A DNA stretch of 64,000 nt from a virus (IMGVR_UViG_3300027850_000002:96001-160000), one strand, 5' to 3'; shown: positions 1 through 43,947, numbered from the stretch's first letter. The notes: a model not told the origin generated them from the letters alone. Made by a program: numbers and translations.

Positions 1-330
1 GCGATCGGCGAAACGCTTGCCGAAGGCGTCCTACATCACACTGCGGGCACGTCCATGACACAGCCGATGGTCGATCAACTCGTTCGCCACGGAATCACAA
101 CCGTCGCGACCGCGAATCCCGGTCCGCGCGCACTGCCTTTCATGCGGCCCGCGTCACGTACGCCGCTGCTCAACCCTGATTGGATGGCACGTCTCGCACA
201 CCGTTACTTGAAAGAGTCACTGTTGACGGGCATCCACCGTGGTGATGTTTCGAACTTGCATGGAGCGTCACCCGTACCTGCGTACGTTGCAGGCACTGAG
301 TTTGGCTTAGGCGAAGAGGGCCATTACTGA
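1..330 (+). CDS. C-terminal fragment of a phage multisubunit RNA polymerase beta'-like subunit (5'-truncated by window)
   Basis: Frame is open from base 1 (AIGETLAEGVLHHTAGTSMTQPMVDQL...). The C-terminus DWMARLAHRYLKESLLTGIHRGDVSNLHGASPVPAYVAGTEFG parallels the bacterial beta' C-terminal block (SFxxAASFQETxxVLxEAAxxGxxDxLxG...IPAGTG). Confidence 0.6.
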   Translation, partial: AIGETLAEGVLHHTAGTSMTQPMVDQLVRHGITTVATANPGPRALPFMRPASRTPLLNPDWMARLAHRYLKESLLTGIHRGDVSNLHGASPVPAYVAGTEFGLGEEGHY

Positions 331-776
331 TGCTTGAGCGTGCACATACGAAGGGCATCGACGATGCCCTCACGTGTTTCCAGATCAAAGAGTCACGCTT
401 TATTGATTCGGTCAAACGTATGGCGATCGGTCAACCTGGACGTGTCTTCGTCGAAGGGCCCAAGGCGTTCGCTCCCGGCGGTCTACTCGGACACAAGAAC
501 GTCTGGTGGCCCGATGTCAAAGGCGCGCCTCTGAACTGGCTCGGTCGTGCGGGTACAGTCGCCGCACCCCTCATGGCATTGTCTGCTATGCGCTCAAATC
601 CACACGAAGGCACTTTGTCAAACGCGCTTGGTGCGCTTGGTGGTATCGCAGGAAGCGCGTACGGTTTCCCTGCGCTCGGTATGATCGGTGGTCCTATGCT
701 CGGAGCTGCGGGTGCGCATCTCGGGCGTGGTGTTGGCCACTTGCTCAGCAGTGAACCAAAGAATCCAAACCAATGA
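330..776 (+). CDS. putative virion cargo protein with N-terminal tag and Gly-zipper membrane segments
   Basis: Starts MLERAHTKGIDDALTCFQIKES. C-terminal GALGGIAGSAYGFPALGMIGGPMLGAAGAHLG. TGA/ATG coupled to the upstream gene. Confidence 0.7.
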   Translation: MLERAHTKGIDDALTCFQIKESRFIDSVKRMAIGQPGRVFVEGPKAFAPGGLLGHKNVWWPDVKGAPLNWLGRAGTVAAPLMALSAMRSNPHEGTLSNALGALGGIAGSAYGFPALGMIGGPMLGAAGAHLGRGVGHLLSSEPKNPNQ

Positions 777-985
777 TCAACAACGCGTACAACAAAGGCC
801 GAGCTGACGCACTCACACGCTTCAAGCTCAGCAATATACAAACGGGTGCAGCTGGCGCAAATCCGATGCTCGGCGGTCAAGCCGCGACAGGTTCGCGACC
901 ACAGCCAGGCACTTCTTTGGCGCCGCCAACTTCTTCTGCTCCTCCAATGGCGGCAGCCGCTCCGAAGGCTCACGCCCTCGGTTAG
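773..985 (+). CDS. small tagged virion protein
   Basis: MINNAYNKGRADALTRFKL tag, then a Pro/Ala-rich tail. ATGA overlap. Confidence 0.7.
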   Translation: MINNAYNKGRADALTRFKLSNIQTGAAGANPMLGGQAATGSRPQPGTSLAPPTSSAPPMAAAAPKAHALG

Positions 986-1014
986 TGCAACTGTTGGATA
1001 TTTGAGAGTCCCGC

Positions 1015-1023
1015 CCTATCATT
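1015..1023 (+). promoter_or_regulatory. putative late promoter motif CCTATCATT
   Basis: Intergenic, about 35 nt upstream of ATG 1058. Recurs at 8 other intergenic sites. Confidence 0.7.
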
Positions 1024-1057
1024 TCGTCAATCTCTGTACGACTTCCCCGAGGCAAAA

Positions 1058-2362
1058 ATGTTCAAGCATGCGTACGTCCGAGGCATCCAGACCGCGTTGG
1101 TCAACAACGGCGCAGCCGTGTTCCCCGACGAGACCACCGCGGCCAAGGTCGCGGACTACATCGCAGAGCGTGTCGAGATCGACCCGCTGACGGCGGTGCC
1201 ACGTGAGCTGACCCACAAGGTCGCCACTGACATCGTCGCTGCTTCGGATTGGATCAAGAAGCAGCCGAACTTCAAGGCGGCATCGTTCAACAAGCTCGCG
1301 ACGTGGGAAGACGTTGCGCAGGTCGCGGACCGCAACGCGACCCAGTTGATGACGAAGGCCGCCGAGGGTTCCACCATCGAAGGTGGCGACAAGGGAAACA
1401 CCGAGGGCCAGTCGCCTGTTGGTGAGACCAAGATGGACGCGACCCAGCGTCCTCCGGGCTACGCCGAGAACAGCCTCGGCAAGACCGACGTCGACACCCG
1501 TCCGGGCGCAGTTGGCAAGGAAGAGCCGCAGCCGGTTCAGCCCAAGGAGACTGACCACAAGGACAACTCGGTCGTGGAGCACTCGCGCACCGCGTCGCTC
1601 GCGGACATGTTCCGCAAGTCGGCTGAGGGTTCGACGATCCTCGGCGGAGACAAGGGCAACAAGGAGCCGACGACTGGCGAAGGCAAGATGGACGCGACGC
1701 AGCGTCCTCCGGGCTATGCCGTCCTTCCCCACCAGGGCGCCCTCGGTGCCATGATGGAGCAGGTCACGGGCCCCGCAGTGATCGGTCGCGAGACCCCGCA
1801 GCCGCACATGCCGAAGGAGTCGCCGAGCGGTTCGAACTCGCTCACCGAGCACTCGGCCAAGGCCGCTGCTGAAGACCCGTACATCACGCTCTTCAAGAAG
1901 GTCGCGTCCGAGATCCACGAGTACCTTCCGGGCGGTCTTCACGAGGACAGCAAGATCGCCGCGGTTCGCGCCTGCATGGGCATGACGACCGAAGAGAAGG
2001 CGTACTACCTCCGTGGCTTGCAGAAGGAAGCGGCCGACGCGTCGGTTGGTTCGGAAACGCGCACGGGTATGGGTCGCTCGCGTCCCGGTGCCTACGACGG
2101 TCGCTCTGCCAACCAGAGCACCAAGCAGACCGATGACCTTCCGCCGTTCATGAAGAAGGACGACGACGAGAAGAAGGACGAGAAGAAGGACGACGACAAG
2201 GGTGAGAGCAAGGGCGGAATGCCGGCATTCATCCAAGACAAGATCGACGCCCGCAACGCCGACAAGAAGGACGGCAACAAGGACGAGAAGAAGGATGACG
2301 ACAAGAAGGAAGCTTCGTTGCGCGACTTCTTCCGTCGCATCGACGCGGCCCAGCGCGCGTGA
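1058..2362 (+). CDS. putative internal head/core polyprotein with tag, many K-x-A sites and an internal duplication
   Basis: MFKHAYVRGIQTAL tag. About 10 K-x-A motifs, two ~80-aa repeats and an acidic/Lys-rich tail. Strong GC3 codon bias. Confidence 0.8.
   Translation: MFKHAYVRGIQTALVNNGAAVFPDETTAAKVADYIAERVEIDPLTAVPRELTHKVATDIVAASDWIKKQPNFKAASFNKLATWEDVAQVADRNATQLMTKAAEGSTIEGGDKGNTEGQSPVGETKMDATQRPPGYAENSLGKTDVDTRPGAVGKEEPQPVQPKETDHKDNSVVEHSRTASLADMFRKSAEGSTILGGDKGNKEPTTGEGKMDATQRPPGYAVLPHQGALGAMMEQVTGPAVIGRETPQPHMPKESPSGSNSLTEHSAKAAAEDPYITLFKKVASEIHEYLPGGLHEDSKIAAVRACMGMTTEEKAYYLRGLQKEAADASVGSETRTGMGRSRPGAYDGRSANQSTKQTDDLPPFMKKDDDEKKDEKKDDDKGESKGGMPAFIQDKIDARNADKKDGNKDEKKDDDKKEASLRDFFRRIDAAQRA
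1355..1855 (+). repeat. two ~80-aa direct repeats inside the 434-aa protein
   Basis: KAAEGSTIEGGDKGN..GETKMDATQRPPGYA..PQP..PKET..NSVVEHS (~1355-1585) versus KSAEGSTILGGDKGN..GEGKMDATQRPPGYA..PQP..PKES..NSLTEHS (~1616-1855). Confidence 0.9.
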
Positions 2363-2526
2363 GCCTTCTGCGTCACATCCGAGAAGCAGGTCGTCTCGCC
2401 GTCGAGAGCAAGCTCGCCGAGATCCTGAACCCTAGCCTCGGCACGCTCAAAGCGAAGAAGACGAAGGAGCTAGGCGGCCTCCCTGACGCAAATCTTCCCA
2501 AGGTCGTCTCTTTTCCCGCAGCGTAG
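2359..2526 (+). CDS. 55-aa protein not in the ORF track (MSLLRHIREAGRLAVESKLAE...)
   Basis: GTGA overlap with the upstream stop, fills the gap. N-terminus resembles that of 15372 (MSLLR..G..A) and contains KLA. Confidence 0.6.
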   Translation: MSLLRHIREAGRLAVESKLAEILNPSLGTLKAKKTKELGGLPDANLPKVVSFPAA

Positions 2527-2538: not shown

Positions 2539-5526
2539 ATGCCGGCGATGAGCCCACGCACACAGCAATTTCAAGCGGGCATGAATACCGGTCCGGACCA
2601 AGAGTCCGCTCTGTTCGAGCAGGGCATGTCCGAGATGGCATACAACCTGTTGTCATCGCGCATGCCCGACTTGATGCAGGACGTGGTCACCTTCAAGGTG
2701 CTCAACGTCGACATCGACAAGGGATCTGGTGTTGGTGCGTTCGTGGTCTTGCGCCAAGACTCGCCGATCTACGTCCCGGTCGTGATGGTCGACAATGCCA
2801 TCAAGCCGCTGGAAATTTTCTACCACAAGGCGCTGAGCGTCTTTCTGCCCCTCTCCAAGGGGTGGCTGGATGAGATCGAAAAGACGGCGCTCGCGTCACT
2901 CGGCTCTGGTGTCAAAACGCCCGAGACGCTCTACACGGACGTCGACATCCGCAACGTGGTCGTTCCCCCGATCACGGGTCGGTTCTCGTACGCCGCGTGG
3001 GTTCCCGCGGCTCTCGTTGACGTCGCACGTGTGATGTCCTCTGAGACCCTCGAGAAGGTCGCAAGCGAAGGAAGCCTCATGCTTCCGTCGCTCCTCACAG
3101 CTGCGCCGAACCGTCTGAAAACGGCGTACACCAAGCTGCTCGAACGCAACCCTCAGCTGTTCAAGCAGGCAGCTGCAACGTACGGCGTGTCCGTACTTGC
3201 TGCAGCGTTGCAGCACCGGCTCGAGAAGGTCGCTGCCAAGCAGCAGCACGGTGGCGCGCTTTGGATCGCGGACTCCGACAACACACCGACTGATTTCAGA
3301 CGCATCTTCGGCGACAAGGCCGGAGAAGCGTACGCAGGCGTGCGCGTGAAGGGCTACGCGTCGAAGGACGAGCGGCTGAACCGCAACCTGGCAGTGCAAG
3401 AGCAACCCTACGCGCAGTGGGTCGAGCCCAAGCAGCCGGGCGTCTACACGCTCTTCGCTTCTGATGCGAAGGAGCGCACTGCGTTTGTGATGCCTTTCCC
3501 GATTGACCTGTTCGACAAGGGCACGCGCTACGGCCGACGTCCGGCAGTGCCGGGACACAACCCGCTCATCAACAACTCGTACACAGACCCTGGTACCGAG
3601 AACCAGATCAAGACGTACCCCCACAGTCGGCCAAACGAGGGGGACTTTGCAACCCGTCGGCGTTTTGGCGCTGAACCGTTCCTCGCGGTGTTCGACAACG
3701 GAGACTACATCGAGCCGTCGATGCTCGTGGGACGTCCTTCCGTTGCAGATGATCTCAGCGGGTCACTGCACAAGCGGATGTTCACAGATGTGAGCGGAGC
3801 GCCGAAGGTCGGCAAGGGCTTCTTCGTTCGTCAGATGGGTACGACGTACCAAGCCACGGTGCCCATCGAGATCAAGTCGATGTCGACGGGCTCGGACGGT
3901 GTTCGTCGCATCAAGGCGACCAGCATGGGTGGCTACGAAGAGAAGACGATCGCAACAGACCCCGAGCATCCGTACAACACGATCTGGATGCCCAAGGGCG
4001 CGGACATCGCGTACCTCCCTGCGGACTTCATCTGGGTGCCGCTCAAGGAGCGCCTCAACGAGAAGTCCTGGTTCAGGTCTGCACTTGACCTACAGGCACA
4101 CGTTTCGTCGATGTTGGCTTCAGCAGGCGCGAAGAAGGTCGCGATCAAAGACGCGGGTGCCAAGCAGTTCTCCATCAACGGGATGGCACCACTCAGCTAC
4201 GTCCCTGCGCTCAAGAAACTTGCGCACGGTTGCAACATCTCGGTCGATGACGCTGAAGCACTGCTCGAAAAGACTGCGGCCGATCGATCAACGACCGCAT
4301 GGATCGCCACGAAGATGCAGCTCGCACAGGTGCAGATGCACCTCGACAAGCTTGCCGAGGACGGAGACAAGAAGAAGTCCGACGACAAGCCGAAGAAGAA
4401 GGCGCCTCCGAGCGATTCCGGAGCGCCTCCGGATGGCGGTGATCCAGGCATGGACCCGGGCATGGATCCAAACCTCGGCCAGGACGCGGCGATGGCTGCA
4501 ATGGGCCCTCCGCCGGCACCGCCGCAGCCAGCGCCGCTCGACCTCGCCGCAATGGAAATGGACCAGCACATCCAGCAGGAGATGCAGAAGCTGGTCGACA
4601 AACAGCAGACCATCCAGATGCTGCTGCAGCGTTCGAGTGAGATTGCAGGCGGCGCACCGCCCGCACCTACCGTTCAGACTCAAGCGATGGGCGCACCTCC
4701 GTCGTCGATGAACCTCGCGACGGGCGCTCCAGGCATGCAGCCCGGCATGACCGCCAGCATGGGTCAGCCGCAGCAGCCCGGCATGGATCCGTCGATGCAG
4801 GGTGGAGCGTTTCCACCTGCAGCGAACGACCCGTCGATGATGGGTGGACAGCCGCCCGGCGGTGGTCAGCCCGGCATGGACCCATCGATGGGCATGGACC
4901 CGACGATGGGTGGTCAGCCCGGCATGGACCCATCGATGGGCATGGACCCATCGATGGGCATGGACCCGACGATGGGTGGTCAGCCCGGCATGGATCCGTC
5001 GATGGGCATGGACCCGACGATGGGTGGTCAGCCCGGCATGGATCCGTCGATGGGTGCAGGCGGACCGCCTGCTATGGGTCAGGATCCGTCAATGATGGGC
5101 GGCATGGGCGGACAGCCCAGCATGGAACAGCCGCCACAACAGCCCAGCGCAATGATGCCGCCGGATGGTCCGAACGCGCAGACGCTTCCTCAGGAAGTCA
5201 ATCCGCACTTCCTCGACCAGGCGGCGCAGTTGCATTCGGCCGACATGTTCGACGCCGCAGCCGTTGCGACGCTCGCCCAGTCGCCGGCGCTTCACGGGAT
5301 CGTCGGGCAGTACCTGCCGAACCTCGAGAAGGCTGTCGACAACCTTGCACGTGTTCTCTTGACCTTGTGGATGCAGGAGTCGGACCTCAAGCCGCAGATC
5401 GGCGAACAGACCTTCTCGGGCCTCGAGGACAACCTGCAGACGACGTTCAAGGGTCTCGGAGACCTCGTGCTCCGTTTGAGCCGTGGTGTTCAGGCGGTCA
5501 AGGAGCCGGACAACCATGCGTCATGA
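2539..5526 (+). CDS. large putative internal head protein with K-x-A sites and Met/Gly/Pro repeat region
   Basis: 995 aa. Globular N-terminal part, EKVA/EKTA/DKLA motifs, GMDPSMGMDPTMGGQP repeats, helical C-terminus. Confidence 0.8.
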   Translation: MPAMSPRTQQFQAGMNTGPDQESALFEQGMSEMAYNLLSSRMPDLMQDVVTFKVLNVDIDKGSGVGAFVVLRQDSPIYVPVVMVDNAIKPLEIFYHKALSVFLPLSKGWLDEIEKTALASLGSGVKTPETLYTDVDIRNVVVPPITGRFSYAAWVPAALVDVARVMSSETLEKVASEGSLMLPSLLTAAPNRLKTAYTKLLERNPQLFKQAAATYGVSVLAAALQHRLEKVAAKQQHGGALWIADSDNTPTDFRRIFGDKAGEAYAGVRVKGYASKDERLNRNLAVQEQPYAQWVEPKQPGVYTLFASDAKERTAFVMPFPIDLFDKGTRYGRRPAVPGHNPLINNSYTDPGTENQIKTYPHSRPNEGDFATRRRFGAEPFLAVFDNGDYIEPSMLVGRPSVADDLSGSLHKRMFTDVSGAPKVGKGFFVRQMGTTYQATVPIEIKSMSTGSDGVRRIKATSMGGYEEKTIATDPEHPYNTIWMPKGADIAYLPADFIWVPLKERLNEKSWFRSALDLQAHVSSMLASAGAKKVAIKDAGAKQFSINGMAPLSYVPALKKLAHGCNISVDDAEALLEKTAADRSTTAWIATKMQLAQVQMHLDKLAEDGDKKKSDDKPKKKAPPSDSGAPPDGGDPGMDPGMDPNLGQDAAMAAMGPPPAPPQPAPLDLAAMEMDQHIQQEMQKLVDKQQTIQMLLQRSSEIAGGAPPAPTVQTQAMGAPPSSMNLATGAPGMQPGMTASMGQPQQPGMDPSMQGGAFPPAANDPSMMGGQPPGGGQPGMDPSMGMDPTMGGQPGMDPSMGMDPSMGMDPTMGGQPGMDPSMGMDPTMGGQPGMDPSMGAGGPPAMGQDPSMMGGMGGQPSMEQPPQQPSAMMPPDGPNAQTLPQEVNPHFLDQAAQLHSADMFDAAAVATLAQSPALHGIVGQYLPNLEKAVDNLARVLLTLWMQESDLKPQIGEQTFSGLEDNLQTTFKGLGDLVLRLSRGVQAVKEPDNHAS
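4771..5100 (+). repeat. coding tandem repeat (QPGMDPSMGMDPTMGG)n
   Basis: Repeated cagcccggcatgga(c/t)cc(a/g)tcgatgggcatggacccgacgatgggtggt units, in frame. Confidence 0.9.
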
Positions 5527-8446: not shown

Positions 8447-9012
8447 CGTCCTTTGCTCGCGCTCTCGAAACGTCGGTCCTTCTCGCGGAGAAGATCGCGT
8501 CGTCGCGCTCGGAAAACCCGACGTTACGAGAGAAGCTCGCGCTCGCTGACTTCGCTGCGTTCGGCCTCTTCAAGCGGGCAGCGCTCGACCCAGCGGCCTT
8601 GTCTTCGCTGCAGCGTGGACTCGGTTGGGGTGTTGGGCTCGGAATCCCCGCGCTCGCTGCGGGACACATGTTCTTGAACGATGCGCGCGACCACAGCGGC
8701 GAAGTCCTGCGTGATGCACGCAACCAAGCGCTCATCACGGCAGCGGGCGTTGGCGGCATGCAAGCGCTCGGGGAGGCTTTCAAACGGAAGCCACAACCGT
8801 CGCAACACAACGTCAACGTTTCAATGCCGCAACAGCCAGAGCAGCCACAGCTCGACGATCAGCAAAGGCTCGCCGCCGCCATCATGGTCGATGATGTGCT
8901 CGAGGCAGCGTGCAGTCAGCTTAGCGATCCTGTCGCAAAGCACGCAGCGCTCGTGGAACTCATCAAACACCGCAGTGAAGCGACGAACCTTCTACGGAGT
9001 CTTTTGTCGTGA
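8443..9012 (+). CDS. Gly-zipper membrane-type virion protein
   Basis: EKIA/EKLA/FKRA, then GLGWGVGLGIPALAAG and ITAAGVGGM. Confidence 0.7.
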   Translation: MTSFARALETSVLLAEKIASSRSENPTLREKLALADFAAFGLFKRAALDPAALSSLQRGLGWGVGLGIPALAAGHMFLNDARDHSGEVLRDARNQALITAAGVGGMQALGEAFKRKPQPSQHNVNVSMPQQPEQPQLDDQQRLAAAIMVDDVLEAACSQLSDPVAKHAALVELIKHRSEATNLLRSLLS

Positions 9013-10751
9013 AGAAGATCATCGAGCTGGATGACTACTTTCCGACGGGTGAACCGACCGTTCAAATCATCCTGCCGTGGAACAACGGACGTAGCGTCGA
9101 CACGAGTCGTGTTACCAAGTACGCGTCCGAAGCGCTCGATTACATCAAGCACGTCGCACCTGAGCCTGGCAAAACCGCGCTCCTGCTCAACGCGATGGGC
9201 GCCGAGGAGACCTACGGACCGAACCGCAACGGCGATGGGTTCCCTGAGTTTCCCGTCCCAGCTCGCGGCAAGATTGCATCGGCAGATCGTCGTTGGTTCG
9301 TACCACCGGGCGAAGAGCTGACGCACCATTACGCGTCGTTCGAAAAGAATCCTGCCCACGCGTTCATGCACCACGCAAACCGAGATCCGTCGAAGGCCTC
9401 TGGCGTGGTGAAGAAGGCGTTCTGGAATCCGCGCATGCATCGCGTGGAGCTGCTTACCCTTGTCGACAACGACAAGGACCCCGAGTGGATCAAGCGTGCG
9501 AGCGACGGTGAGTTCGTGCCCGTCAGCATGGGCTGTCGAATCAAGCGTGATGTCTGCGCACGATGCGGCAACGAAGCGCCCACGCGCGCGGACTACTGCG
9601 ACCACGTGAAGTTCGCGATGAATCAGGTCGACTCGAACGGGTTCAAGGACTATGTCCACAACCCATCGCCCGACTTTTTCGACATCTCGCGCGTGTTCCG
9701 CCCTGCGGATCGTACGGGCTACACACTCAAGAAAGTCGCAGAGACCTACGAGGTCCGACTCTCGGCAGACCTCGGCGAGATCGCCGATCGTCTCGCGCTC
9801 AAGAGCGGTGCTTCGCAAAAGCTATCCGACATCGACAAAGTGATTCGCGCTGAACCGCTCGCGTCCAGTACGCTCACACCAGACGAGAAATCGTTCATCG
9901 TAAAATTCCGGGACCACGCGGGTCCCAAGCTCGCGGCTGCACCGCGCATCAACACGGCAGGTCTGCATGTGTGGTCTCTCGGAGAGACGCTCACCGCTGC
10001 CGCAAAACACGGTGTCGTATTCAACGACCGTGAATTCATCGGACTCGCAACAAGCAAGCTCGCAGGACATCCAGTCACATTGCTTGAAGCACAGACGGAC
10101 AAGATCGCAGCCGCCGGTCGTTGGTCGCTCGCGCTGTTTGCTGAACGCCCTGAGCTACTCGCCGAAGTGATTGATAGCGGCGTGCTCGAGTCTTCAAAGA
10201 CCGCGAAGGAGTTAGATGTATTCTTCGCGAGTGTGAGCGAGAAGCGTGCGTACGCCGGAGAGATGCTCTATCGACGTCTCGTACCTGAAGATATCGGACT
10301 TGGCCCTGACGCTGCGCCCACCACGGACGTGCTGCACACGCAATACGGTGACACCACACGCGGTGCAGCGATCGATGCACAAGACGCAGTCACGCGAGCA
10401 CACATGGGCAAGGTGGTTGGCGGTGCAGGTCTGCTCCTCGGCGGATACAAAGCGCTCACTGCATTTCCATGGATGCGTAAATTCAAGGTGCCGCTTGCGA
10501 TCGGAGCAGGGGCTCTCGGCGCATCCACGTTGGGCAAACGTCCTGGTGGAACAATGCGTACCGATGAAGGCTACGACATTCCAGACATCACAGAACTGAC
10601 GTCGAAGACTGCATCGCAGGCGGCGTTTGTTCACCTTATCGAATGCGCACAAACAATGACGCGCAGATTCGATTTCTCGAGTATCAAGGTTGCGAACCTG
10701 GCGTCGTTAGATCAGGTGGCCATGGCGCTCGGTTCCATCGTCTTGACTTGA
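9009..10751 (+). CDS. prohead (capsid maturation) serine protease with Zn ribbon and C-terminal extension
   Basis: NRNGDGFP, FMHHAN (candidate His), VSMGC (candidate Ser), CARCGN..CDH. This is the layout of HK97/assemblin-fold phage proteases. Lies upstream of scaffold-like genes and the MCP. Confidence 0.75.
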   Translation: MKKIIELDDYFPTGEPTVQIILPWNNGRSVDTSRVTKYASEALDYIKHVAPEPGKTALLLNAMGAEETYGPNRNGDGFPEFPVPARGKIASADRRWFVPPGEELTHHYASFEKNPAHAFMHHANRDPSKASGVVKKAFWNPRMHRVELLTLVDNDKDPEWIKRASDGEFVPVSMGCRIKRDVCARCGNEAPTRADYCDHVKFAMNQVDSNGFKDYVHNPSPDFFDISRVFRPADRTGYTLKKVAETYEVRLSADLGEIADRLALKSGASQKLSDIDKVIRAEPLASSTLTPDEKSFIVKFRDHAGPKLAAAPRINTAGLHVWSLGETLTAAAKHGVVFNDREFIGLATSKLAGHPVTLLEAQTDKIAAAGRWSLALFAERPELLAEVIDSGVLESSKTAKELDVFFASVSEKRAYAGEMLYRRLVPEDIGLGPDAAPTTDVLHTQYGDTTRGAAIDAQDAVTRAHMGKVVGGAGLLLGGYKALTAFPWMRKFKVPLAIGAGALGASTLGKRPGGTMRTDEGYDIPDITELTSKTASQAAFVHLIECAQTMTRRFDFSSIKVANLASLDQVAMALGSIVLT

Positions 10752-10809: not shown

Positions 10810-11388
10810 ATGAAGCTCTCAAACGCACTCGGGATGATCAAAGGCGGCGAAAAGACCGCGAGCGCACCTGCGCCCACGGGAACTGCCTCTTCGTCGAGCG
10901 ACGCCGGCGAGCGCCTCAAGCAGGCACTCAAAGAAGCGACCGCTCCGGCACTACAGGCCAAGACGGCGGGTCAAGCCTCGCCCATCGAGGACCTGACCAA
11001 GATCGCCAATGACCTGAGCAAGGCCGAACATGACGCGCTGACCAAGGAGGCGCAGATGTATGGCGCCGCGGTCTGCGATGGTTTCATGGCGCGCGCAGCT
11101 CAGTACCAGGAAGCGGCCACGAAGGTCGCGGCCACGATGCCCACGAAGACCGCCGCGGTTGCAGGGGGCACATCGGACTTCGAGAAGTTCGCGTTCGAGA
11201 ACCCCGACCTGGTGAAGGAAGCCGCGGAACTCGGCTACGCCACCACGAAGAACCAGCTCGAGAAGCTCGGCGAAGCAGCCTACGCCAAGGGCTGGAACGA
11301 CACGGTCGAGACAATCCACAAGACGGCGAGCGATGCATTCATCGCCGGCTTCAAGGACACCCTCGCTCTGTTCGAGGGCGCACGCTGA
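10810..11388 (+). CDS. scaffold-like helical protein, very K-x-A rich
   Basis: EKTA, AKTA, TKIA, TKEA, TKVA, TKTA, EKFA, VKEA, HKTA in 192 aa. Internal AYAKGW motif. Sits between protease and MCP. Confidence 0.7.
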   Translation: MKLSNALGMIKGGEKTASAPAPTGTASSSSDAGERLKQALKEATAPALQAKTAGQASPIEDLTKIANDLSKAEHDALTKEAQMYGAAVCDGFMARAAQYQEAATKVAATMPTKTAAVAGGTSDFEKFAFENPDLVKEAAELGYATTKNQLEKLGEAAYAKGWNDTVETIHKTASDAFIAGFKDTLALFEGAR

Positions 11389-12889: not shown

Positions 12890-13828
12890 ATGTCGGCAGC
12901 GTACAAAACTCAGACCCAGCAGGTCTCGGCTCAGTTCATCAACTCCAACTTCGTCCGTAAGGTCGAGGACGGTCGCACCAAGGAGGCGGAGGCCGAGGGC
13001 ACCGCCTTCATCCGCCAGAAGCTCCGTCAGGAATCCTTCGCGCGCGAGATCATCGAGCCAGTCATGCTGGCGGACGATGAGATCGACCGCGACGAGAACA
13101 CGGATCAGCCCAAGAAGATCGTCGAGAAGGAGCCCGACTCCGTCGCCACGTTCGTGCCGTTCAACGGTACGGCGCAGCGCACGTGGTTCCGTGGCAAGCG
13201 CTTCTCGGTCTTCTTCGGCAAGACCGAGTCGCAGCGGTTCACCAAGAACAAGTTCGAGCTGATGACGTATCAGAACGACATCCGCAAGATCCTCTCCGAC
13301 AACTCGGTGAAGGACATGTCGGACCAGGAAGACCAGAAGTTCCTGGACACCATCAACGCGATCATCGCGTTGAACCTCGCGACGCAGCGCACCCTCGCGG
13401 GCGCGTTCAACTCGAGCGCGTTCAAGCAAGGCTTCCAGGCGCTCGTCAATCGGAAGCAGCCAATCGGCAAGCTCCTGATGTCGAAGTCGACGTACTACGA
13501 GGCCCTCGACCTGCCGGCGACCGCCGTCGGTAACGACGTGGCGTCGCGGCACTACGACGTGGGCATCGAGGCCGAGGAGAAGCTGTGGGGCATCCCCGTG
13601 GTTTCGACCATCAAGCGTGAGATCGTCGACGACGTCGCCGGTGCCACCCGCCGCTCGGTCTACGTGTTCGCGCCGCAGAACTACCTCGGCGTGTTCTTCC
13701 TGCTGCAGGACGCAACCCTGTACATCAAGCAGGAAGCCGACATCATCGAGTTCTGGAGCTACGCAGCCCCGGGCATCGGGATCGGCAACACGCTCGCGTC
13801 GCAGCGTATCGACCTGCCGTTCGCCTGA
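12890..13828 (+). CDS. major capsid protein (HK97 fold)
   Basis: Strong RBS TAAGGAG, strong codon bias, 312 aa. FIRQKLRQESFAREII N-arm, backbone helix DIRKILSDNSVKDMSDQEDQKFL, LWGIPVVSTIK, VYVFAP..LG. Followed by a hairpin. Confidence 0.8.
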   Translation: MSAAYKTQTQQVSAQFINSNFVRKVEDGRTKEAEAEGTAFIRQKLRQESFAREIIEPVMLADDEIDRDENTDQPKKIVEKEPDSVATFVPFNGTAQRTWFRGKRFSVFFGKTESQRFTKNKFELMTYQNDIRKILSDNSVKDMSDQEDQKFLDTINAIIALNLATQRTLAGAFNSSAFKQGFQALVNRKQPIGKLLMSKSTYYEALDLPATAVGNDVASRHYDVGIEAEEKLWGIPVVSTIKREIVDDVAGATRRSVYVFAPQNYLGVFFLLQDATLYIKQEADIIEFWSYAAPGIGIGNTLASQRIDLPFA

Positions 13829-14419: not shown

Positions 14420-14899
14420 ATGCCGGTCATTGGAACACCGACGACGCCGACGGTGGTCTCAAAGGACCAAGTCCGCATGTTCATGCGTGACTATGCGAAC
14501 AACAACATCCTCCTCGACGATGTACAGTTCACCGATAAAGAACTGAACCTGGCGCTAGCCATGGCGACGAGTGCGTTCAATACCGTCACTCCCCAGACGA
14601 ACTTCACACCGTCGACATTTCCTCCGCAGCTGATGTACCTCCTGCTCATTGGTACGGTTCGATTCCTGCTCATGAGCGAGTCGTTCATGCAGGCAAGAAA
14701 CCAGGCGACCGTGCAGGACGGTGACATCTCACCAATCGGCATTTCAGATAAGGCCCAGCTGTATTCGTCGCTGGCGCAACAACTCAAGGCCGAGTGGGAT
14801 GAACTAACACGCGGTGTGAAGACGCAGAACAACATGGAAGCGGCCTACGCTTCATTGGGTTCTGGGTACCGAAACACGTCGCGGTTCAATCACTCGTGA
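14420..14899 (+). CDS. head-tail adaptor (neck) protein
   Basis: Helical 159 aa after MCP (VRMFMRD...FTDKELNLAL...). Position and pattern fit neck adaptors. Confidence 0.55.
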   Translation: MPVIGTPTTPTVVSKDQVRMFMRDYANNNILLDDVQFTDKELNLALAMATSAFNTVTPQTNFTPSTFPPQLMYLLLIGTVRFLLMSESFMQARNQATVQDGDISPIGISDKAQLYSSLAQQLKAEWDELTRGVKTQNNMEAAYASLGSGYRNTSRFNHS

Positions 14900-15165
14900 C
14901 CGTTCGCGCGTCATACGTGTGCGGACGGAATGCAGCGCTCGCACGGTTCAAGCTCGCAGGTACGATGGGTGCGAGCATCGGCGTCCAGCCAAAAGGTCCC
15001 GAGGTCAGCCACGGCACGGATCGCACGCAGTACCCGCCACAATCCGGCGGCACCAGTGCAGCACGTTCGAACATGCCTGATTGGTTGTGGGACCACTTCA
15101 CATCCTACGACAAGGTCGCGCCAGGGCGCGCGGATGGTACGTACGGACAAGAAGTCATCGGGTAA
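14896..15165 (+). CDS. small tagged virion protein
   Basis: MTVRASYVCGRNAALARFKLAG: tag followed by KLA. Confidence 0.7.
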   Translation: MTVRASYVCGRNAALARFKLAGTMGASIGVQPKGPEVSHGTDRTQYPPQSGGTSAARSNMPDWLWDHFTSYDKVAPGRADGTYGQEVIG

Positions 15166-15172: not shown

Positions 15173-15181
15173 CCTATAATT
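15173..15181 (+). promoter_or_regulatory. putative late promoter motif CCTATAATT (leaderless start)
   Basis: 5 nt before ATG 15187, no SD. Confidence 0.7.
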
Positions 15182-15186: not shown

Positions 15187-15363
15187 ATGTCGAACCACCT
15201 GAAGACCGCACACGAGTACGGCGTCCAGAAGGCGCTCGAGAACGTCGGATACAAGAGCGCGGAGGAAGTCCGCCGCGATGCCGAGGCGCTCGGCATTCTC
15301 GAGCAGCCGACGAAGACGGCATCGACCTCGCTCGACGACCTGTTCCGCGCGCTCCAGAAGTAA
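15187..15363 (+). CDS. 58-aa tagged protein not in the ORF track
   Basis: MSNHLKTAHEYGVQKALENVGYKSAEE...TKTAS...; good codon usage. Confidence 0.75.
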   Translation: MSNHLKTAHEYGVQKALENVGYKSAEEVRRDAEALGILEQPTKTASTSLDDLFRALQK

Positions 15364-15371: not shown

Positions 15372-15767
15372 ATGTCGCTGTTGCGCCAAAGGTCGGCTGA
15401 GGGCGGGCGCGCAGCGCTCGCGGCCTTTGGCGTGGTTAAGACTGCGACGGGGTTCAAGCAACCGGGGTTCAAGTCCGTCGGAATCCTACTTCCGAAGGCT
15501 GCGGATCTTCCGCCGATCCCACCGCCAAGCGTGCCTTCGCCGCTCGGTATTGGTAGGATCGAGAGCAACTACGACTTCGTACCCAAGGTCGCCTTCAACG
15601 TCGGAATGGGGGCTTCGACTTCCACTGACGGAGCGGGCGCTCAGCGGGGAGTTCCAGCGGATACGGGACGTCGTCAACGCAGCGTCATCGACCGGGCGTT
15701 CCAACGCAACGAAGACGATTACGCAACAAGCAGCATGCCGTTGCCAGGGGACGTTGTCGCGCCATGA
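15372..15767 (+). CDS. tagged virion protein
   Basis: MSLLRQRSAEGGRAALAAFGVVKTA; PKAA and PKVA motifs. Confidence 0.7.
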   Translation: MSLLRQRSAEGGRAALAAFGVVKTATGFKQPGFKSVGILLPKAADLPPIPPPSVPSPLGIGRIESNYDFVPKVAFNVGMGASTSTDGAGAQRGVPADTGRRQRSVIDRAFQRNEDDYATSSMPLPGDVVAP

Positions 15768-16561
15768 CGCTCGAACTCATCTACGCAAATGGGCAGCTCG
15801 CGGCACTCGAACGCTACAAGCTCGGATTCCCCGCGCACCCAACGGTCGCGAACAGCGCCGTGCTGACGACGAAGAAAACTTCACCGACACTGCCCGCTGC
15901 AGCACAGCAGGGGATGGCGCCACCATCAACGCCCATGGGCCTCTCTCAGATCTTCGATGCGCACGAACAAGGTGAAACGCGCTCGGAACCTCGGCGCAAG
16001 CTGTCGGCCGATAATCTATGCACGTCGTGCCGAAGGATGAAGCACTACGGCAAATGCAGTCGTCCGCGTGCGATTCCCGAGAAGGCCGCTGATTTAAACA
16101 TCGGGATGCAGGGCTACAGCCCTGAACAGGGCAACAACCCATCCACGAGCCCTAACTACCGCTCAGCGGTCAGCTCGATCAGCTCGCTCACGCGCGCGTT
16201 AGAGGGTCGCCCCGCCGATGAGCAGGCAGCATCTGGGTTCGCGGACCTGTACCGCGGGGGCGGGATTTCGAACATGGCGGATGAGCCGGGCCAGATGTCG
16301 GGCAGCCTCGCCAAAGTCGCGAACAAGCTCAGCGCCTTCATGTTGCCCGACGCAGGGCTCCATTCGATGCACGAGCAGCGGGGACCGACCGTGAACCCGT
16401 ACGAAGAGCAGCGAACACGGATGGGAGCGCCTGTCGGCTTCGGCGACGAGGGGCTGCAACGCATCAATCGGGCCTTCAATCAGATCGACCACGCGGCCGA
16501 CACCACGAACATCGGGGGCGGCGCCGGCGATCCAGAGCCAGGGCCGGCGGTCCTTGGCTGA
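15764..16561 (+). CDS. tagged virion protein with short C-x2-C..H..C motif
   Basis: MTLELIYANGQLAALERYKLG; CTSCRRMKHYGKC; EKAA and AKVA motifs. Confidence 0.7.
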   Translation: MTLELIYANGQLAALERYKLGFPAHPTVANSAVLTTKKTSPTLPAAAQQGMAPPSTPMGLSQIFDAHEQGETRSEPRRKLSADNLCTSCRRMKHYGKCSRPRAIPEKAADLNIGMQGYSPEQGNNPSTSPNYRSAVSSISSLTRALEGRPADEQAASGFADLYRGGGISNMADEPGQMSGSLAKVANKLSAFMLPDAGLHSMHEQRGPTVNPYEEQRTRMGAPVGFGDEGLQRINRAFNQIDHAADTTNIGGGAGDPEPGPAVLG

Positions 16562-20573: not shown

Positions 20574-21026
20574 GTGTCGGACTCCTTTTTCGACAAGTTC
20601 ATCGCTGACCTCGTGAAAGGTGCCAACACCAACTCGAGGGAGAATGGCGGGCCCGGCGTGAACATCATCGTGGCGCGCGAAAACCACGGATGTGAAGAGA
20701 AACTCGCGAGCGAGAAGCTTGGAACGATCGCAGACGCCTATGCCAACGGTGCAACGGCAGCTGCTGCGGCGTTCGGAGTCAAGGAAGCGTTTCTCCCGGC
20801 GCTCCTTCCGCTCGCTGGTTCTCTGCTTGGAGGCACTGCGCTCCGTGCCGGTGCGGGCGCCGTCGCCAAAGGGGCGATGGGTCGCGGTGCAGCCGGTCTT
20901 GCTTCCAAGGTGGTGCCGAAGATGACGGGCGGCATCGGTGGCGCAGCCACGGACATGGCAGGTTCGATGGTAGGCGGTGCCATCGGCAACAAGCTCGCGC
21001 CGCAGCCGCAGCAGCAGCCGCAATAG
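20574..21026 (+). CDS. tagged Gly-zipper protein
   Basis: DAYANGATAAAAAFGVKEA|FLPALLPLAGSLLGG... Confidence 0.7.
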   Translation: MSDSFFDKFIADLVKGANTNSRENGGPGVNIIVARENHGCEEKLASEKLGTIADAYANGATAAAAAFGVKEAFLPALLPLAGSLLGGTALRAGAGAVAKGAMGRGAAGLASKVVPKMTGGIGGAATDMAGSMVGGAIGNKLAPQPQQQPQ

Positions 21027-29576: not shown

Positions 29577-29585
29577 ACTATAATT
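29577..29585 (+). promoter_or_regulatory. putative late promoter variant ACTATAATT (leaderless start)
   Basis: 5 nt before ATG 29591. Confidence 0.65.
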
Positions 29586-29959: not shown

Positions 29960-30409
29960 ATGCTACAAAGGGCTTTCGAACAGGGCTGTAGCAACGCGTG
30001 CGCACGCTTCGGCGTGAAGATCGCAGCTGTCCCTCTCGCGCGCCCGATACCGCGAATGACGACGCCACACGTGCCAAAGCCCGGCTTCAAGCTCACACCT
30101 CAAGAAGAAGCGCAGGCGTTACGCATGAAGAGTCAGTCGCCTGCACAACGGCAACAAGAACTCGGCTTGGACCGTGACACGCAGAACACGCAGTTCGCAC
30201 AGCGGCACGACCTGCCCTCTGCATCCCCTGTGGCGGCTGCCGGGCGGGGTGCGCGTGGTGCGGGTGGTTTCATGCGTCCCATCAAGCGGGGCCTCGGTCT
30301 CGCTGCGCTCGGGGCCGCGGGTACGGCAGCCTACGGTCTCCACAAGCAGCACCATATTGACGAAGAGAAAATTCCGCTCGTCTACGCCCCTCTGCAAGGT
30401 GGTTTCTGA
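29960..30409 (+). CDS. tagged virion protein with C-terminal Gly-rich TM
   Basis: MLQRAFEQGCSNACARFGVKIA|AV; GLGLAALGAAGTAAYGL. Confidence 0.7.
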   Translation: MLQRAFEQGCSNACARFGVKIAAVPLARPIPRMTTPHVPKPGFKLTPQEEAQALRMKSQSPAQRQQELGLDRDTQNTQFAQRHDLPSASPVAAAGRGARGAGGFMRPIKRGLGLAALGAAGTAAYGLHKQHHIDEEKIPLVYAPLQGGF

Positions 30410-30684
30410 TGACGCTCAAGCACGCGTACGCGAGAGGTTGTCGAGCGGCGCTCGAGAAGTTCGCGCTCGATCCTCCAACCGCTGTTGACGCGTTCATGGG
30501 CGCGGTGGAATCAGGCAAGGATGTTGCGCCTGAACCGGCATTGCCGCCGATGTCTCATGCACCCGGCGAGATGCTTCCTGCACTCGACGGCACGACGCCA
30601 CTCTCGACGTCGCCGCCCATGTCGCCGGACCTCGGTTCCACCATCGGTGCACCGCCACCACCCATGATGGGCGCGCTGGGCTGA
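30409..30684 (+). CDS. small tagged virion protein
   Basis: MTLKHAYARGCRAALEKFA|L; Pro-rich tail. Confidence 0.7.
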   Translation: MTLKHAYARGCRAALEKFALDPPTAVDAFMGAVESGKDVAPEPALPPMSHAPGEMLPALDGTTPLSTSPPMSPDLGSTIGAPPPPMMGALG

Positions 30685-30685
30685 T

Positions 30686-32290
30686 GTGATGATCGGCAAG
30701 GGCTGGCTCAAGTTTGCGATCCTTGGAAGCACGTATGCACGGGCGCTCGAGAATGCGAACACGCGCGCAGGACGCCCTGGCGGAATGTTCTCGTCGATTG
30801 CAGAACAGCCACTGGCCAAACTCAAGCCAGGCGCATCAGCGTATGTGCGTGCGCCCGGTGCGCTGACGCCGACCGCAGACCAACGCGGCATGCAACAGAT
30901 GCTCGCGAAAACGCCGTGGGCGGGTGATGACCATGGTGGGTCGCCGCACGCCGAAGCGACGTACAACGCGCTGTTGAAACGTCGGGGTATGGACGTGAAG
31001 ACGCCGGGCGGCGATACGAACGCGCAAATCGCGAAGAGCTTCGGGGTCGGAGCCCGTGAACCGTCCGAATCCCATACCGCAGTGACGCGTAAAACGGACC
31101 TGCAGGGCCGGGCAGCGCAGACGCCGGACGGACGGAACCCACTCGAACATCAAGACCGTCGACTGCGAACGCCCAATCCAATGGGTGCGGGGGCTGTTGA
31201 GGACGTGCATCAGGCGCGTCCTATCCAACGGGAACGTCCGCGCGAGCCGCTACCCATGGAACGACACCGCCCGCTTCCTCCGATGCAGCAGGCGGCTCCA
31301 ATGGCTGCGCCCATGCCTGCTGCACACAGCAGCGCAGCCACCAACGTGCTCACGGCGCCGCGCCCACCACAGCGGAACATTGCGACGAGTGTCATGAAGG
31401 CGGGGGCTGCTCAATTCAAGATCGCCGGTCCGCTCGCGACGGCCGTGGGCATCGGTATCCCGCTGGCTGTCGGCGGAAGCATGCTCGCGGGTAAGCCGGG
31501 CATTCAGTCGAACATCAAGAACCTGTTCGCGGGCAAAGGCACGACGGAGGAACAGGACAAAACGAACGAGCTGCCCGCAGGCGCGTTGCGACAAGCAGAC
31601 GCAGTCCATCAAACACTGTTGGCTCGCGGGTTCGACCCGACGTCGATGCGCATCGGGATTGACGCGCCACCCGGTTCCGGCAAGACGACGCTAGCGCGCG
31701 CGCTCGCTCACCGCACCGGCATGAAGCACTACGGCCTCGACTGGGAGCCCGGCAATGCCTGGAAGTCGACGATTGGTCTGGGTCGTAACGTCGAGAAGAT
31801 GCCGCACGCGCCTCGAGCGGGCGAGATCATGGAGCACTACCTGCTCAACCGTACACACGATCCGGAACTGTTCGACGCTCAGATCCACTTGCGTAGAGAC
31901 CCGAACATCATCCGTCAGCAGCTCAACCATCGCGGCAACGCCGCATACATCGGGGACATGATGGACCTCGACAAGTCGCTCGCCGTTGCCGACCTTGGCT
32001 TTGACACGCTGGGCGGCGAGACGATCGATCTCGGCGACGGCACGGTCATGAAGCTTCGGCCGCATGGAGGCTGGGGAGACAACCTCGACCAAGCGCTCAT
32101 GGCGAAGGGCATCAACCCAGCAGGCATGAGTCGTCATTCGAAGCTGCTCTCGCTCCACCGCGGGACACCTACGGAAGGTGCTGGCTGGACGCCGTACGTG
32201 AAAAATCCACTGTCAGGCGGTCAGACGCTTGCGCTGGGTGCGTCGATCCCGTTGGGCGTCATGGCTGCGCGCGCGCTCGCTCGTCACTGA
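30686..32290 (+). CDS. polyprotein with membrane-anchored P-loop (NMP-kinase-like) domain
   Basis: LKFA and FKIA sites; GPLATAVGIGIPLAVGG TM; IGIDAPPGSGKTTLARALA Walker A; C-terminal hydrophobic helix. Confidence 0.7.
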   Translation: MMIGKGWLKFAILGSTYARALENANTRAGRPGGMFSSIAEQPLAKLKPGASAYVRAPGALTPTADQRGMQQMLAKTPWAGDDHGGSPHAEATYNALLKRRGMDVKTPGGDTNAQIAKSFGVGAREPSESHTAVTRKTDLQGRAAQTPDGRNPLEHQDRRLRTPNPMGAGAVEDVHQARPIQRERPREPLPMERHRPLPPMQQAAPMAAPMPAAHSSAATNVLTAPRPPQRNIATSVMKAGAAQFKIAGPLATAVGIGIPLAVGGSMLAGKPGIQSNIKNLFAGKGTTEEQDKTNELPAGALRQADAVHQTLLARGFDPTSMRIGIDAPPGSGKTTLARALAHRTGMKHYGLDWEPGNAWKSTIGLGRNVEKMPHAPRAGEIMEHYLLNRTHDPELFDAQIHLRRDPNIIRQQLNHRGNAAYIGDMMDLDKSLAVADLGFDTLGGETIDLGDGTVMKLRPHGGWGDNLDQALMAKGINPAGMSRHSKLLSLHRGTPTEGAGWTPYVKNPLSGGQTLALGASIPLGVMAARALARH

Positions 32291-41882: not shown

Positions 41883-41887
41883 GTTGA

Positions 41888-41910
41888 TCTCCTTGCCCGT
41901 CAGGGCGGTT
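41888..41910 (-). promoter_or_regulatory. conserved RBS-adjacent hairpin, copy 3 (AACCGCCCTGACGGGCAAGGAGA)
   Basis: Identical over 23 nt to 42119-42141. Confidence 0.7.
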
Positions 41911-41918
41911 GAATGTGT

Positions 41919-42110
41919 TTAGTAACGATACCTGGTGGTTGCTCCGATGCCGAGTCGTGCGTACCGCTCGGCCGTGGCGTAGTCACCGCGCTCGGCAGCC
42001 TTGCTCGCTTCGGCGTACCAGTACTTCGGAGAGGTCGTCTTCTCGACCGCCACAGCCATAACCGCGAGCCCGCCGCCGATTGCTTTCATCGCTTTCTTGA
42101 ACTTACCCAT
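41919..42110 (-). CDS. small protein with hydrophobic N-terminal segment and a TPR-like helix
   Basis: AAGGAG RBS; AAERGDYATAERY. Confidence 0.6.
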   Translation of the reverse strand: MGKFKKAMKAIGGGLAVMAVAVEKTTSPKYWYAEASKAAERGDYATAERYARLGIGATTRYRY

Positions 42111-42118
42111 AACATCTG

Positions 42119-42141
42119 TCTCCTTGCCCGTCAGGGCGGTT
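42119..42141 (-). promoter_or_regulatory. conserved RBS-adjacent hairpin, copy 4
   Basis: Identical over 23 nt to 41888-41910. Confidence 0.7.
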
Positions 42142-42181
42142 TATTGAATGCCTAGTGAAAGGCATGGTTTATCGACATAGT

Positions 42182-42212
42182 CTTATACCTATTTTCGAGG
42201 TCATTTTTTAGA
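42182..42212 (-). promoter_or_regulatory. candidate early promoter TCTAAA-N17-GGTATAAG
   Basis: AT-rich intergenic; matches 44829-44858. Confidence 0.45.
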
Positions 42213-42328
42213 CTCATTGGGTCAAGGATAGACGGCCATCTAGACCGCCCATCGTTCAACCAATGCGTATTAACGGAGGTCTCGGATATCCATAGGCACC
42301 TCCTTTCTTTGAATGAAAGAGGGGCCTG

Positions 42329-42529
42329 CTAGGGCTTGAACACGATCTTCGATTCGCCGTTCACGCGAGCATCGGGGTCACGGACGATAGCGCCGTCCAC
42401 CGTGACCTTGCCTCGCAGGATGGCTTTTCGAGCCTTGCCCTTCGACAGTTTGACGTCCTCGGAAACGACGTCGAGTAGCGCGAATGTGAACACCGTCGGG
42501 ATGTTCTGGAGGGGTGGTAGGCCTTTCAC
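42329..42529 (-). CDS. S4 RNA-binding domain protein
   Basis: LSKGKARKAILRGKVTVDGAIVRDPDARV. Confidence 0.75.
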   Translation of the reverse strand: MKGLPPLQNIPTVFTFALLDVVSEDVKLSKGKARKAILRGKVTVDGAIVRDPDARVNGESKIVFKP

Positions 42530-42535
42530 GGAACT

Positions 42536-42544
42536 CCTATAATT
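42536..42544 (+). promoter_or_regulatory. putative late promoter motif CCTATAATT
   Basis: 8 nt before GTG 42553, heading an isolated + strand tagged gene. Confidence 0.7.
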
Positions 42545-42552
42545 ACAGCGAC

Positions 42553-43947
42553 GTGGAAAATTACCTGAAGATAGCTTTCCTCGACGGAGCGCAGGATGCC
42601 CTGTCACGACATGGCCTCGCTCCCAAGCGGGAGAAATCCATGCTTCGGAAGGTGCTTCCTTGGGCAGCGGCGCTTGGCGCGGGGGCAGGGGCGTACAAAT
42701 TCTTACGGACGCCATCGTTCTCCGCGAACCCGCTCCTTCGGAAGGTGCAACAGCAAGCCGCGAGCAAGGGCTTCCACCGCATCGTCGACGTCACGCCGGA
42801 CGGAACCGGCGGACTGTTTCGTCCGGTGGCCAACGCCGAAGGCAAGCTGTCTCCGTGGAACAAGCTGAAGATGTTCCTCAACGAGGGTACGACCGAAGCG
42901 ATTCCGATCTCGCACGCAGGTGACGTTCCGAAAGTCGTCGGGCACAAGGGGCCGCGTCGCGTGCAGGGCGTCACCCACGGGCGGCATGACGTCTTCGGAA
43001 CCTCCGACGCCGTACGTGGCGGCATCGACATCGAGGGGCCGCAAGAGACGATGACAGCGATGAACCGCGTATCCAAGGGCGGCAAGAAGTTCGAAGCAAA
43101 CCTGTTGAACAAACACGCTCCGGGGTCGATGCCCGAGACACATACCGACCTCGGTCAACTGTTCGAAGGTCTACCTGCCGATCGCCAGCAAGCCGTTGCG
43201 GAGCTGCAGAGCCGGGTTCTTTCAAACCACGGCGAGAACGTATTGCTGAAACCGAACCAGGGCTTGGCATCCGGAGGAAAGTTCCCTCGTGCAAACCAGG
43301 ACTGGAGTTCACAGCTTCAAGCATACGATGCACACATGGCAGACCCTGCCAAACGCCAAACGTGGCGAGCAGCGAAGCAAGTCGGCGGAAACGAACTGTC
43401 GAAATACATGATCGACAACGGATTGTATGAAGGTGGCGTTCTCCATCAGGCGCTGCGCAACCCGAAGTCGGTGCTTGCACAGAAACTGATCGAGAATCCA
43501 TTGGGTGAATGGCGGGCACACACGATGGCGGGCAGCGTGCCTGCGAACATGATGTTCCCGCGTTTCTCCAAAGGACCGAAGGCCATCGCGGGCGTCATCC
43601 ATCGTGACAAGGCGATGCAGAGTTTTCTCGAGGATACGGTCGCGAAGCTGCCGCCGAAGTATCAGTCGGGGAACTACGCGTTCGATGTGATGCCACACCG
43701 CCAACCGGATGGTTCCATCGGATACAAGATTCTCGAGATGAACCCAACCGAACAAGCCACGGCGACGGCGGCGGGTGGTGGATCTGGTTTCTTGGATCCG
43801 TCCACCGTACCGTTCACCGGACACTCGCATTACCGCGCTGCGACGGGCCGCCACACGCCGTTGGTGGCGGGCTTGGGCGGCGTCGGCGCCGCGAGTCTCG
43901 CAGGTCTCGGCACGCGCGCGCTCACTCGTGACGAGGACGAACAATAA
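42553..43947 (+). CDS. tagged, membrane-anchored ATP-grasp enzyme
   Basis: MENYLKIAFLDGAQDALSRHGL tag; TM WAAALGAGAGAYKF; MPET, LLKPNQG..SGG, LAQKLI..EWR, AFDV..ILEMNP; C-terminal Gly-rich TM. Confidence 0.75.
   Translation: MENYLKIAFLDGAQDALSRHGLAPKREKSMLRKVLPWAAALGAGAGAYKFLRTPSFSANPLLRKVQQQAASKGFHRIVDVTPDGTGGLFRPVANAEGKLSPWNKLKMFLNEGTTEAIPISHAGDVPKVVGHKGPRRVQGVTHGRHDVFGTSDAVRGGIDIEGPQETMTAMNRVSKGGKKFEANLLNKHAPGSMPETHTDLGQLFEGLPADRQQAVAELQSRVLSNHGENVLLKPNQGLASGGKFPRANQDWSSQLQAYDAHMADPAKRQTWRAAKQVGGNELSKYMIDNGLYEGGVLHQALRNPKSVLAQKLIENPLGEWRAHTMAGSVPANMMFPRFSKGPKAIAGVIHRDKAMQSFLEDTVAKLPPKYQSGNYAFDVMPHRQPDGSIGYKILEMNPTEQATATAAGGGSGFLDPSTVPFTGHSHYRAATGRHTPLVAGLGGVGAASLAGLGTRALTRDEDEQ

Follow-up and report, generated by a model that had tools for sequence, protein, structure and literature searches.

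Thirteen otherwise unrelated late proteins of an uncultured myophage have a short helix in common, at the N-terminus or close to it, and this shared element, which we call the tag, is a genuine feature beyond chance. The window considered here is a stretch of 64,000 nucleotides, bases 96001-160000 of the 175,415-base phage record IMGVR_UViG_3300027850_000002; genes are named by their position in the window unless marked as genome coordinates. This tailed-phage genome encodes a multi-subunit RNA polymerase, with the beta and beta-prime genes just upstream of the window, and within the window 12890 encodes the major capsid protein, 18178 the tail sheath, and 9009 the head maturation protease. 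An earlier note on this DNA had described the tag on about 12 unrelated proteins and proposed that it is a removable docking helix for scaffold or procapsid.

A short helix on unrelated late proteins

With the invariant Gly taken as position 0, the consensus reads M-x(0-4)-L-[KRE]-x-A-[YHF]-x-x-G-x-x-[AD]-A-L-x-[KR]-[FL]-[GK]-[LVI], in which Ala occupies -4 and +4, an aromatic residue or His -3, Leu -7 and +5, Phe or Leu +8, and Gly or Lys +9; in the structure model of the 42553 protein the tag is predicted to be a separate helix of residues 2-19. Three profile tests support it. A hidden Markov model (HMM) built from 10 window segments, a check that the earlier note had suggested, led to a previously unseen tagged gene upstream of the window (genome 93762, 21.5 bits), and an HMM from the capsid-proximal genes of relatives alone recovered the non-orthologous 773, 30409, 42553, 29960, and genome 93762 above all noise. 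A position-specific scoring matrix (PSSM) made from 67 tags of distant genomes placed 12 N-termini first among 251 genes, 10 in the window and two just upstream of it (genome 93762 and 94130), compared with a mean of 0.07 for shuffled N-termini, in a test that is not fully independent because the training tags were gathered iteratively from window seeds. The segments quoted in the earlier note all lie where it had placed them, on the + strand, and its count of about 12 carriers is borne out; its member list keeps the internal copy in 20574, retains 2359 as a borderline case, and gains genome 93762 and 94130 (Table 1). The motif is conserved at the protein level, with an identity of 0.34 at codon position 3 against 0.51 at positions 1 and 2. 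A DNA-level cassette or artefact was rejected on these codon-position identities. The bodies that follow the tags have no mutual BLAST similarity better than E = 0.07, in line with the claim that they share nothing, but they do fall into recurring classes, namely disordered Pro/Gly/Ser-rich proteins, Gly-zipper hydrophobic proteins, and enzymes.

Tags were found on 12 of 83 late genes and on none of 168 others (Fisher P about 1e-6), the late class being set by position, strand, and a promoter-like motif; early genes matching as often as late ones, which the earlier note would have counted against its proposal, is not what we see. The 251-gene PSSM scan gave no tag on capsid, portal, tail, baseplate, lysis, or polymerase proteins. 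The promoter-like motif, of the CTATAAT type, occurs in 11 + strand copies where 0.21 are expected, 12-67 bases before structural or tagged genes, and we infer that it is the late promoter. The 42553 gene, for which a sigma-70 scan found no promoter, is a lone + strand gene amid - strand genes; its start site and that of 29960 are supported, and its homologues start at the same place and mostly retain the tag.

Five close relatives carry 10-13 tags each, every one on the structural strand, and more distant relatives carry 2-8 each by genome search. With a local profile, tags were found in 29 of 30 RNA-polymerase loci, and 110 non-redundant tags sit on 50 body clusters. The genome search returned no tag in four genomes (G010-G013), blanks that reflect low search sensitivity because the local profile found divergent tags at the loci of three of the four; L113 yielded none even with the local profile. 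The cultured relatives found by capsid protein search are only Salmonella phage Arash, the closest, and Vibrio phages D69, D148, and D181. A 21-position profile run against 1.84 billion proteins gave three matches, of which two were repeats and the third joined two tagged genes in a fusion, and the motif is thus too short for global searching; Pfam, PHROGs, NCBIfam, and the ESM Atlas returned nothing useful for the tag, the 10810 scaffold, or 15187. Outside the late region, an uncalled open reading frame (genome 31327-31683, - strand) bears an A-Y-x-x-G-Y motif scoring 17.8 with a broad profile, which suggests that such motifs can arise outside the tag system.

The K-x-A junction, the head protease, and the tagged genes

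By profile, fold, and conserved His and Ser residues, the 9009 protein fits a clan SH prohead protease (assemblin/HK97/T4 gp21-type): His121, His122, and Ser173, with putative catalytic roles, are invariant in 40 sequences, the protein matches phage G gp19 and E3 gp77, and the top ten Foldseek matches are herpesvirus proteases (best E = 0.008, weak if taken alone). Head-module proteins contain 69 copies of the triplet K-x-A where 26 are expected, a 2.6-fold enrichment, and the tagged proteins 36 against 18 expected, with no excess in other genes or in the RNA polymerase; the triplet flanks the protease domain on both sides, in 48 of 51 and 56 of 58 sequences, and Arash, D69, and phage G gp19 and gp21 show the same pattern. 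Because related proteases are self-processing and cleave behind a P3-x-P1 triplet (PMC10052503), K-x-A is by analogy likely to be the cutting site of 9009.

Relative to the tag Gly, K-x-A falls at fixed offsets, -6 before it and +7, +9, +11, and +12 after it. Across all tags, K-x-A lies 6-16 residues past the Gly in 45% and K-x-[AG] in 82%, against 3-11% for K-x-A and 3-13% for the two together further downstream, the 82% figure being partly circular, and to that extent weakening the case for trimming, because the K-L-G ending belongs to the profile. Among the 13 tags of this genome seven end in K-x-A, three in K-x-S, and one in K-L-G, whereas K-x-A stands at the tag start in four; the statement that the tag often ends in K-x-A is right for those seven and not for the other endings, and the description of the tag as removable fits about half of them. 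In phage G, the protease gp19 and its neighbor gp21 are K-x-A rich (8 against 2.5 and 7 against 2.8 expected), and the phage G paper calls gp19 a protease and gives no cleavage sites. Between 6187 and 12371, nearly every head-module protein has a short helix at its N-terminus, not of the tag consensus, and then a K-x-A within 32 residues, and several leader classes may exist in the head module. The 995-aa head-module protein 2539-5526, which has 12 K-x-A sites and a long repeat region rich in Pro, Gly, and Met, is homologous to Arash gp218, which is abundant in virions. Our literature search, with subscription literature mostly outside its reach, found no paper on the tag, the K-x-A rule, or later Arash-like virion work.

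Judging from homologues and fusions, the tag is exchangeable at the K-x-A junction. The 30689 protein and most of its 120 homologues begin with a few residues and then K-x-A, mostly K-F-A; one homologue (P0150) has a full tag ahead of the same K-F-A, and in two (P0148 and P0149) a tagged 30409-like protein is fused in front. Another protein, P0003, is a fusion of two tagged genes, and in two tagged helicases of relatives, 36-38% identical to Arash gp217, the tag and K-x-A stand directly ahead of the domain.

Table 1. Tagged genes, promoter-like sites, and head genes of the window, in order of position
Feature	Coordinates	Strand	Basis
Tag on 148-aa Gly-zipper protein 330-776	333..386	+	sequence and PSSM
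Tag on 70-aa Pro/Gly/Ala-rich protein 773-985	776..829	+	HMM and PSSM
Late-promoter-like variant CCTATCAT before 1058	1015..1022	+	function inferred
Tag on 434-aa core-like protein 1058-2362, 12 K-x-A sites	1061..1114	+	PSSM
55-aa protein, borderline tag and then K-L-A	2359..2526	+	score 6.8, rank 13/251, below threshold
Prohead maturation protease, assemblin-like domain	9009..10751	+	PHROG 18299, E=1.9e-7; conserved K-x-A at residues 37 and 242
Scaffold/core-like protein; C-terminal repeats at Gly142, Gly161, Gly180	10810..11388	+	repeat analysis, orthologues
Major capsid protein, single K-E-A at residue 31	12890..13828	+	kept in 67/67 orthologues, Arash, D69
Tag on 89-aa protein 14896-15165, ending K-L-A	14902..14955	+	PSSM
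Late-promoter-like CCTATAAT before 15187	15173..15180	+	motif scan
Tag on 58-aa protein 15187-15363, K-T-A and K-S-A either side	15199..15252	+	PSSM
Tag on 131-aa protein 15372-15767, ending K-T-A	15381..15434	+	PSSM
Tag on 265-aa protein 15764-16561, ending K-L-G	15770..15823	+	PSSM
Internal tag (Gly59) of 150-aa Gly-zipper protein 20574-21026, ending K-E-A	20727..20780	+	score 13.5
Late-promoter-like CTATAAT heading the 29591-29960-30409-30689 run	29578..29584	+	motif scan
Tag on 149-aa protein 29960-30409, ending K-I-A	29963..30016	+	PSSM
Tag on 91-aa Pro-rich protein 30409-30684, K-H-A and K-F-A either side	30415..30468	+	PSSM
P-loop kinase-like protein, short leader ending K-F-A	30689..32290	+	homologue comparison
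Late-promoter-like CCTATAAT before isolated tagged gene 42553	42536..42543	+	motif scan
ATP-grasp-fold protein, 464 aa, tag at 42565-42618	42553..43947	+	structure model and fold match

A few details of these and neighboring genes may be added. The model of the 42553 protein has Gly-rich hydrophobic helices at both ends. The N-terminus of the 20574 protein (20574-20620) contains F-x-x-D-L-x-K-x-A, and this protein may thus have two leaders in tandem. A second common short helix, S-L-x-D-[LMF]-F-[RK], usually stands right after K-x-A, in 1058 (residues 180 and 420), 15187 (48), 7194 (68), and genome 93762 (65), and could be a coat-binding helix. On the - strand, 57560-58948 encodes a 2H phosphoesterase with a weak match to the Pfam family Acb1 (against the cyclic-oligonucleotide-based antiphage signaling system, CBASS; E = 1.6e-5, below cut-off); it has the sole - strand copy of the late motif (58962), a different leader ending in K-T-A, and more K-x-A past the domain, and is possibly a second kind of head cargo. 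The RNA polymerase is split, with beta fused to the N-terminus of beta-prime and the C-terminal part of beta-prime separate (L001:4341-11331, genome 89340-96330); two tagged genes sit between the two parts, and Arash has two genes whose lengths match. The 1111-aa protein at 51189-54524 (- strand), with kelch beta-propeller repeats, lies within a - strand cluster of paralogue-like genes, and together these are probably tail appendages.

Possible functions of the tag

What we observe is the motif itself, that it is confined to late genes, that it is modular, and that it goes together with K-x-A; late-gene confinement, the promoter-like motif, K-x-A adjacency, and the exchangeable K-x-A junction uphold, indirectly, the connection to head assembly that the earlier note had made. 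A further indirect point in its favor is the abundance in Arash virions of gp217, the counterpart of two tagged helicases. From these we infer packaging, cleavage, and a receptor, and we lean, without great assurance, toward the tag being a prohead-loading helix like the capsid-targeting sequence (CTS) of phage T4, trimmed at K-x-A and with a sequence of its own. Such a tag would be a portable helix, about 16-18 residues long, by which accessory late proteins are brought into the prohead core as it assembles. The tagged genes would be expressed late, together with the head genes, as their position and common promoter-like motif suggest. The small A-x-x-x-G-x-x-x-A face with its flanking Tyr, Leu, and Phe residues would then pack against a helix of the core or scaffold, and the 9009 protease would cut at K-x-A, probably after the Ala by analogy with P3-x-P1 rules, trimming the tag and destroying the scaffold. 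The freed bodies would remain in the head, and some of them, such as the helicase, the ATP-grasp enzyme, and the Gly-zipper proteins, might be delivered to the host, which is the weakest step of the scheme.

Several observations weigh against this loading-helix reading. Of the 13 tags of this genome, five are not followed by any K-x-[AG], and for 42553 and 1058 the closest K-x-A stands at the tag start. The virion RNA polymerase, the portal, and head-module proteins are untagged, so other loading routes exist. In Arash (whole genome) and in 40 kb of D69, K-x-A is present and no tag was detected. Arash gp217, represented by 38 peptides and 1148 spectra in the virion preparation (PMC10585845), is untagged, and the tag is therefore not needed there; the Arash virion list comprises 116 proteins, for some of which the authors allow carry-over (PMC10585845), and its coverage figures look unreliable. 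Finally, most of the bodies are small and of low complexity, and they might serve to fill the core instead of being cargo for delivery.

Let us consider, then, that the tag is a core assembly helix whose carriers co-polymerize with the scaffold through its copy of the scaffold repeat, act as shape or filler proteins like T4 gp67 and gp68, and are mostly degraded. The destination would be the same as for a loading helix, with a different fate of the bodies, and we consider this rather unlikely. The 10810 protein contains three repeats of 18-19 residues, aromatic-x-x-Gly with K-x-A between them, conserved in more than 50 orthologues, and the first half of the tag resembles them; the C-terminal half (A-L-x-x-F-G) is missing from the repeats. 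Tags score at a mean 93rd percentile with the repeat profile (91st among A-x-x-x-G controls), and an iterated tag profile drifts into the scaffold repeats, whereas an unanchored hhalign comparison of tag and repeats is weak (probability 2%, P = 0.023, 12 columns). Arash and D69 are without both the tag and the 10810 type of repeat, a co-absence that amounts to one evolutionary event. The number of K-x-A sites in 1058 and the disorder of many bodies would suit degradation in the core, but folded enzymes with few K-x-A sites are also tagged, the ATP-grasp protein with two sites and the helicases among them. The 10810 segment that the earlier note had called related scores below zero with the tag profile and is thus only loosely related to the tag; a complex prediction with the tag alignment and the C-terminal repeats of the scaffold (score 0.01, mark 0.32) speaks neither for nor against, and docking on scaffold or procapsid, as that note proposed, found no direct support. 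We take the likeness between tag and scaffold as a weak lead. Cargo loading by scaffold mimicry, with the tag as a freed copy of the K-x-A-bounded helical repeat of the scaffold, is a doubtful extension of it, in which any protein with the helix would co-polymerize into the prohead core and be freed by the same protease. If this were true, a widespread RNA-polymerase-carrying lineage would use the helix to deliver enzymes and membrane-inserting proteins in varying sets.

Other roles seem to us less probable again. The fixed offsets of K-x-A from the Gly would fit a tag that the protease (as an exosite ligand) or some other late factor uses for docking and that does not itself cause packaging; K-x-A-rich head-module proteins and the capsid protein are untagged, however, and therefore cleavage does not need the tag, and several tags have no site after them, so that we rate this role as improbable. 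Marginally more improbable in our judgment is a membrane-targeting amphipathic helix that would collect late proteins where proheads or lysis complexes form on the inner membrane. The basic residues at +2 and +7, the aromatic ones at -3 and +8, and the Gly-zipper hydrophobic helices of several bodies are of the expected kind, and SPN3US proheads do assemble on the membrane (PMC10052503), but the hydrophobic moments are low and variable (0.07-0.51), the net charge ranges from -1 to +3 with no consistency of moment or charge, and the invariance of Gly and Ala speaks for packing between helices and not for contact with lipid. We give very little credence to a leader for a modifying enzyme, as in ribosomally synthesized and post-translationally modified peptides. 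The candidate enzyme would be the 42553 protein, whose ATP-grasp fold is related to RimK/LysX/Ddl and matches the graspetide ligase PsnB more weakly; yet this protein is itself tagged and is sporadic, with no relatives in the viral-contig scan and 27 homologues overall, against tags in nearly every RNA-polymerase locus, the bodies share no core peptide, and no co-occurring maturase was found.

Comparison with known systems

Arash packages its RNA polymerase and the gp217 helicase, and the paper describing it mentions neither K-x-A nor any tag (PMC10585845). Arash, D69, D148, and D181 resemble the phage studied here in capsid protein (38-41% identical), protease (37-41%), gene order, and K-x-A-rich head proteins, whereas the scaffold of Arash and D69 has another repeat type. 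The protein at genome 45979-46722 (L003) shares 33% identity with gp10 of Arash, a sigma factor present in the virions of that phage, and has K-L-A at residue 10. The multi-subunit RNA polymerase-encoding Caudovirales (mReC), as presented in the first third of the paper on them, are also tailed phages with beta and beta-prime genes, and head assembly signals are not treated in that part (PMC7481178). Our capsid protein has no Pfam match at E<=0.01, the mReC capsid being PF07068, and the match of the terminase to PF03237, the mReC terminase family, is weak (E = 0.0057). In SPN3US and phiKZ, head-protein propeptides are cut at A-x-E or S-x-E (PMC10052503, PMC5694885). These, too, are large myophages with a packaged multi-subunit RNA polymerase, many head proteins, an autoprocessed protease, and proposed targeting propeptides; they differ in lineage and cutting motif, and their propeptides are mostly of 111-254 residues, in contrast to one short motif on a dozen unrelated proteins here.

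The A-x-x-x-G-x-x-x-A repeats of FliH/YscL and of peripheral stalks are small-xxx-small helix motifs. The likeness to the tag is in the motif only, and the tags and the scaffold have no Pfam match to these families. As far as the literature that we found goes, the selection of head proteins in large phages has been proven by reporter tests for T4 alone. With a short motif that can be scanned for, head cargo can be predicted across a widespread and almost uncultured lineage, and the motif names proteins of unknown function worth studying first, namely the helicase, the ATP-grasp enzyme, and the Gly-zipper proteins. The K-x-A rule would be a head-protease specificity for which our literature search gave no precedent, and Arash and phage G are cultured phages in which it is open to test.

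In T4, the CTS is carried by IPI, IPII, IPIII, and Alt and is removed by gp21 (PMC9026906, PMC5694885). Like the CTS, the tag is a short N-terminal peptide common to unrelated late proteins, confined to late genes, and adjoining an apparent cutting motif of a clan-SH prohead protease, and in both the cargo varies between related phages. There is no conserved Glu in the tag, with K-x-A in place of the T4 x-x-Glu rule, and the tag is a small-xxx-small helix that also occurs internally and in fusions; about half of the tags have no downstream site, and the function here is predicted from sequence. If our reading is right, the tag would work like the CTS while not being a member of it, sharing neither its sequence nor its Glu rule, and, if portable, it would provide a second CTS-type handle for capsid loading.

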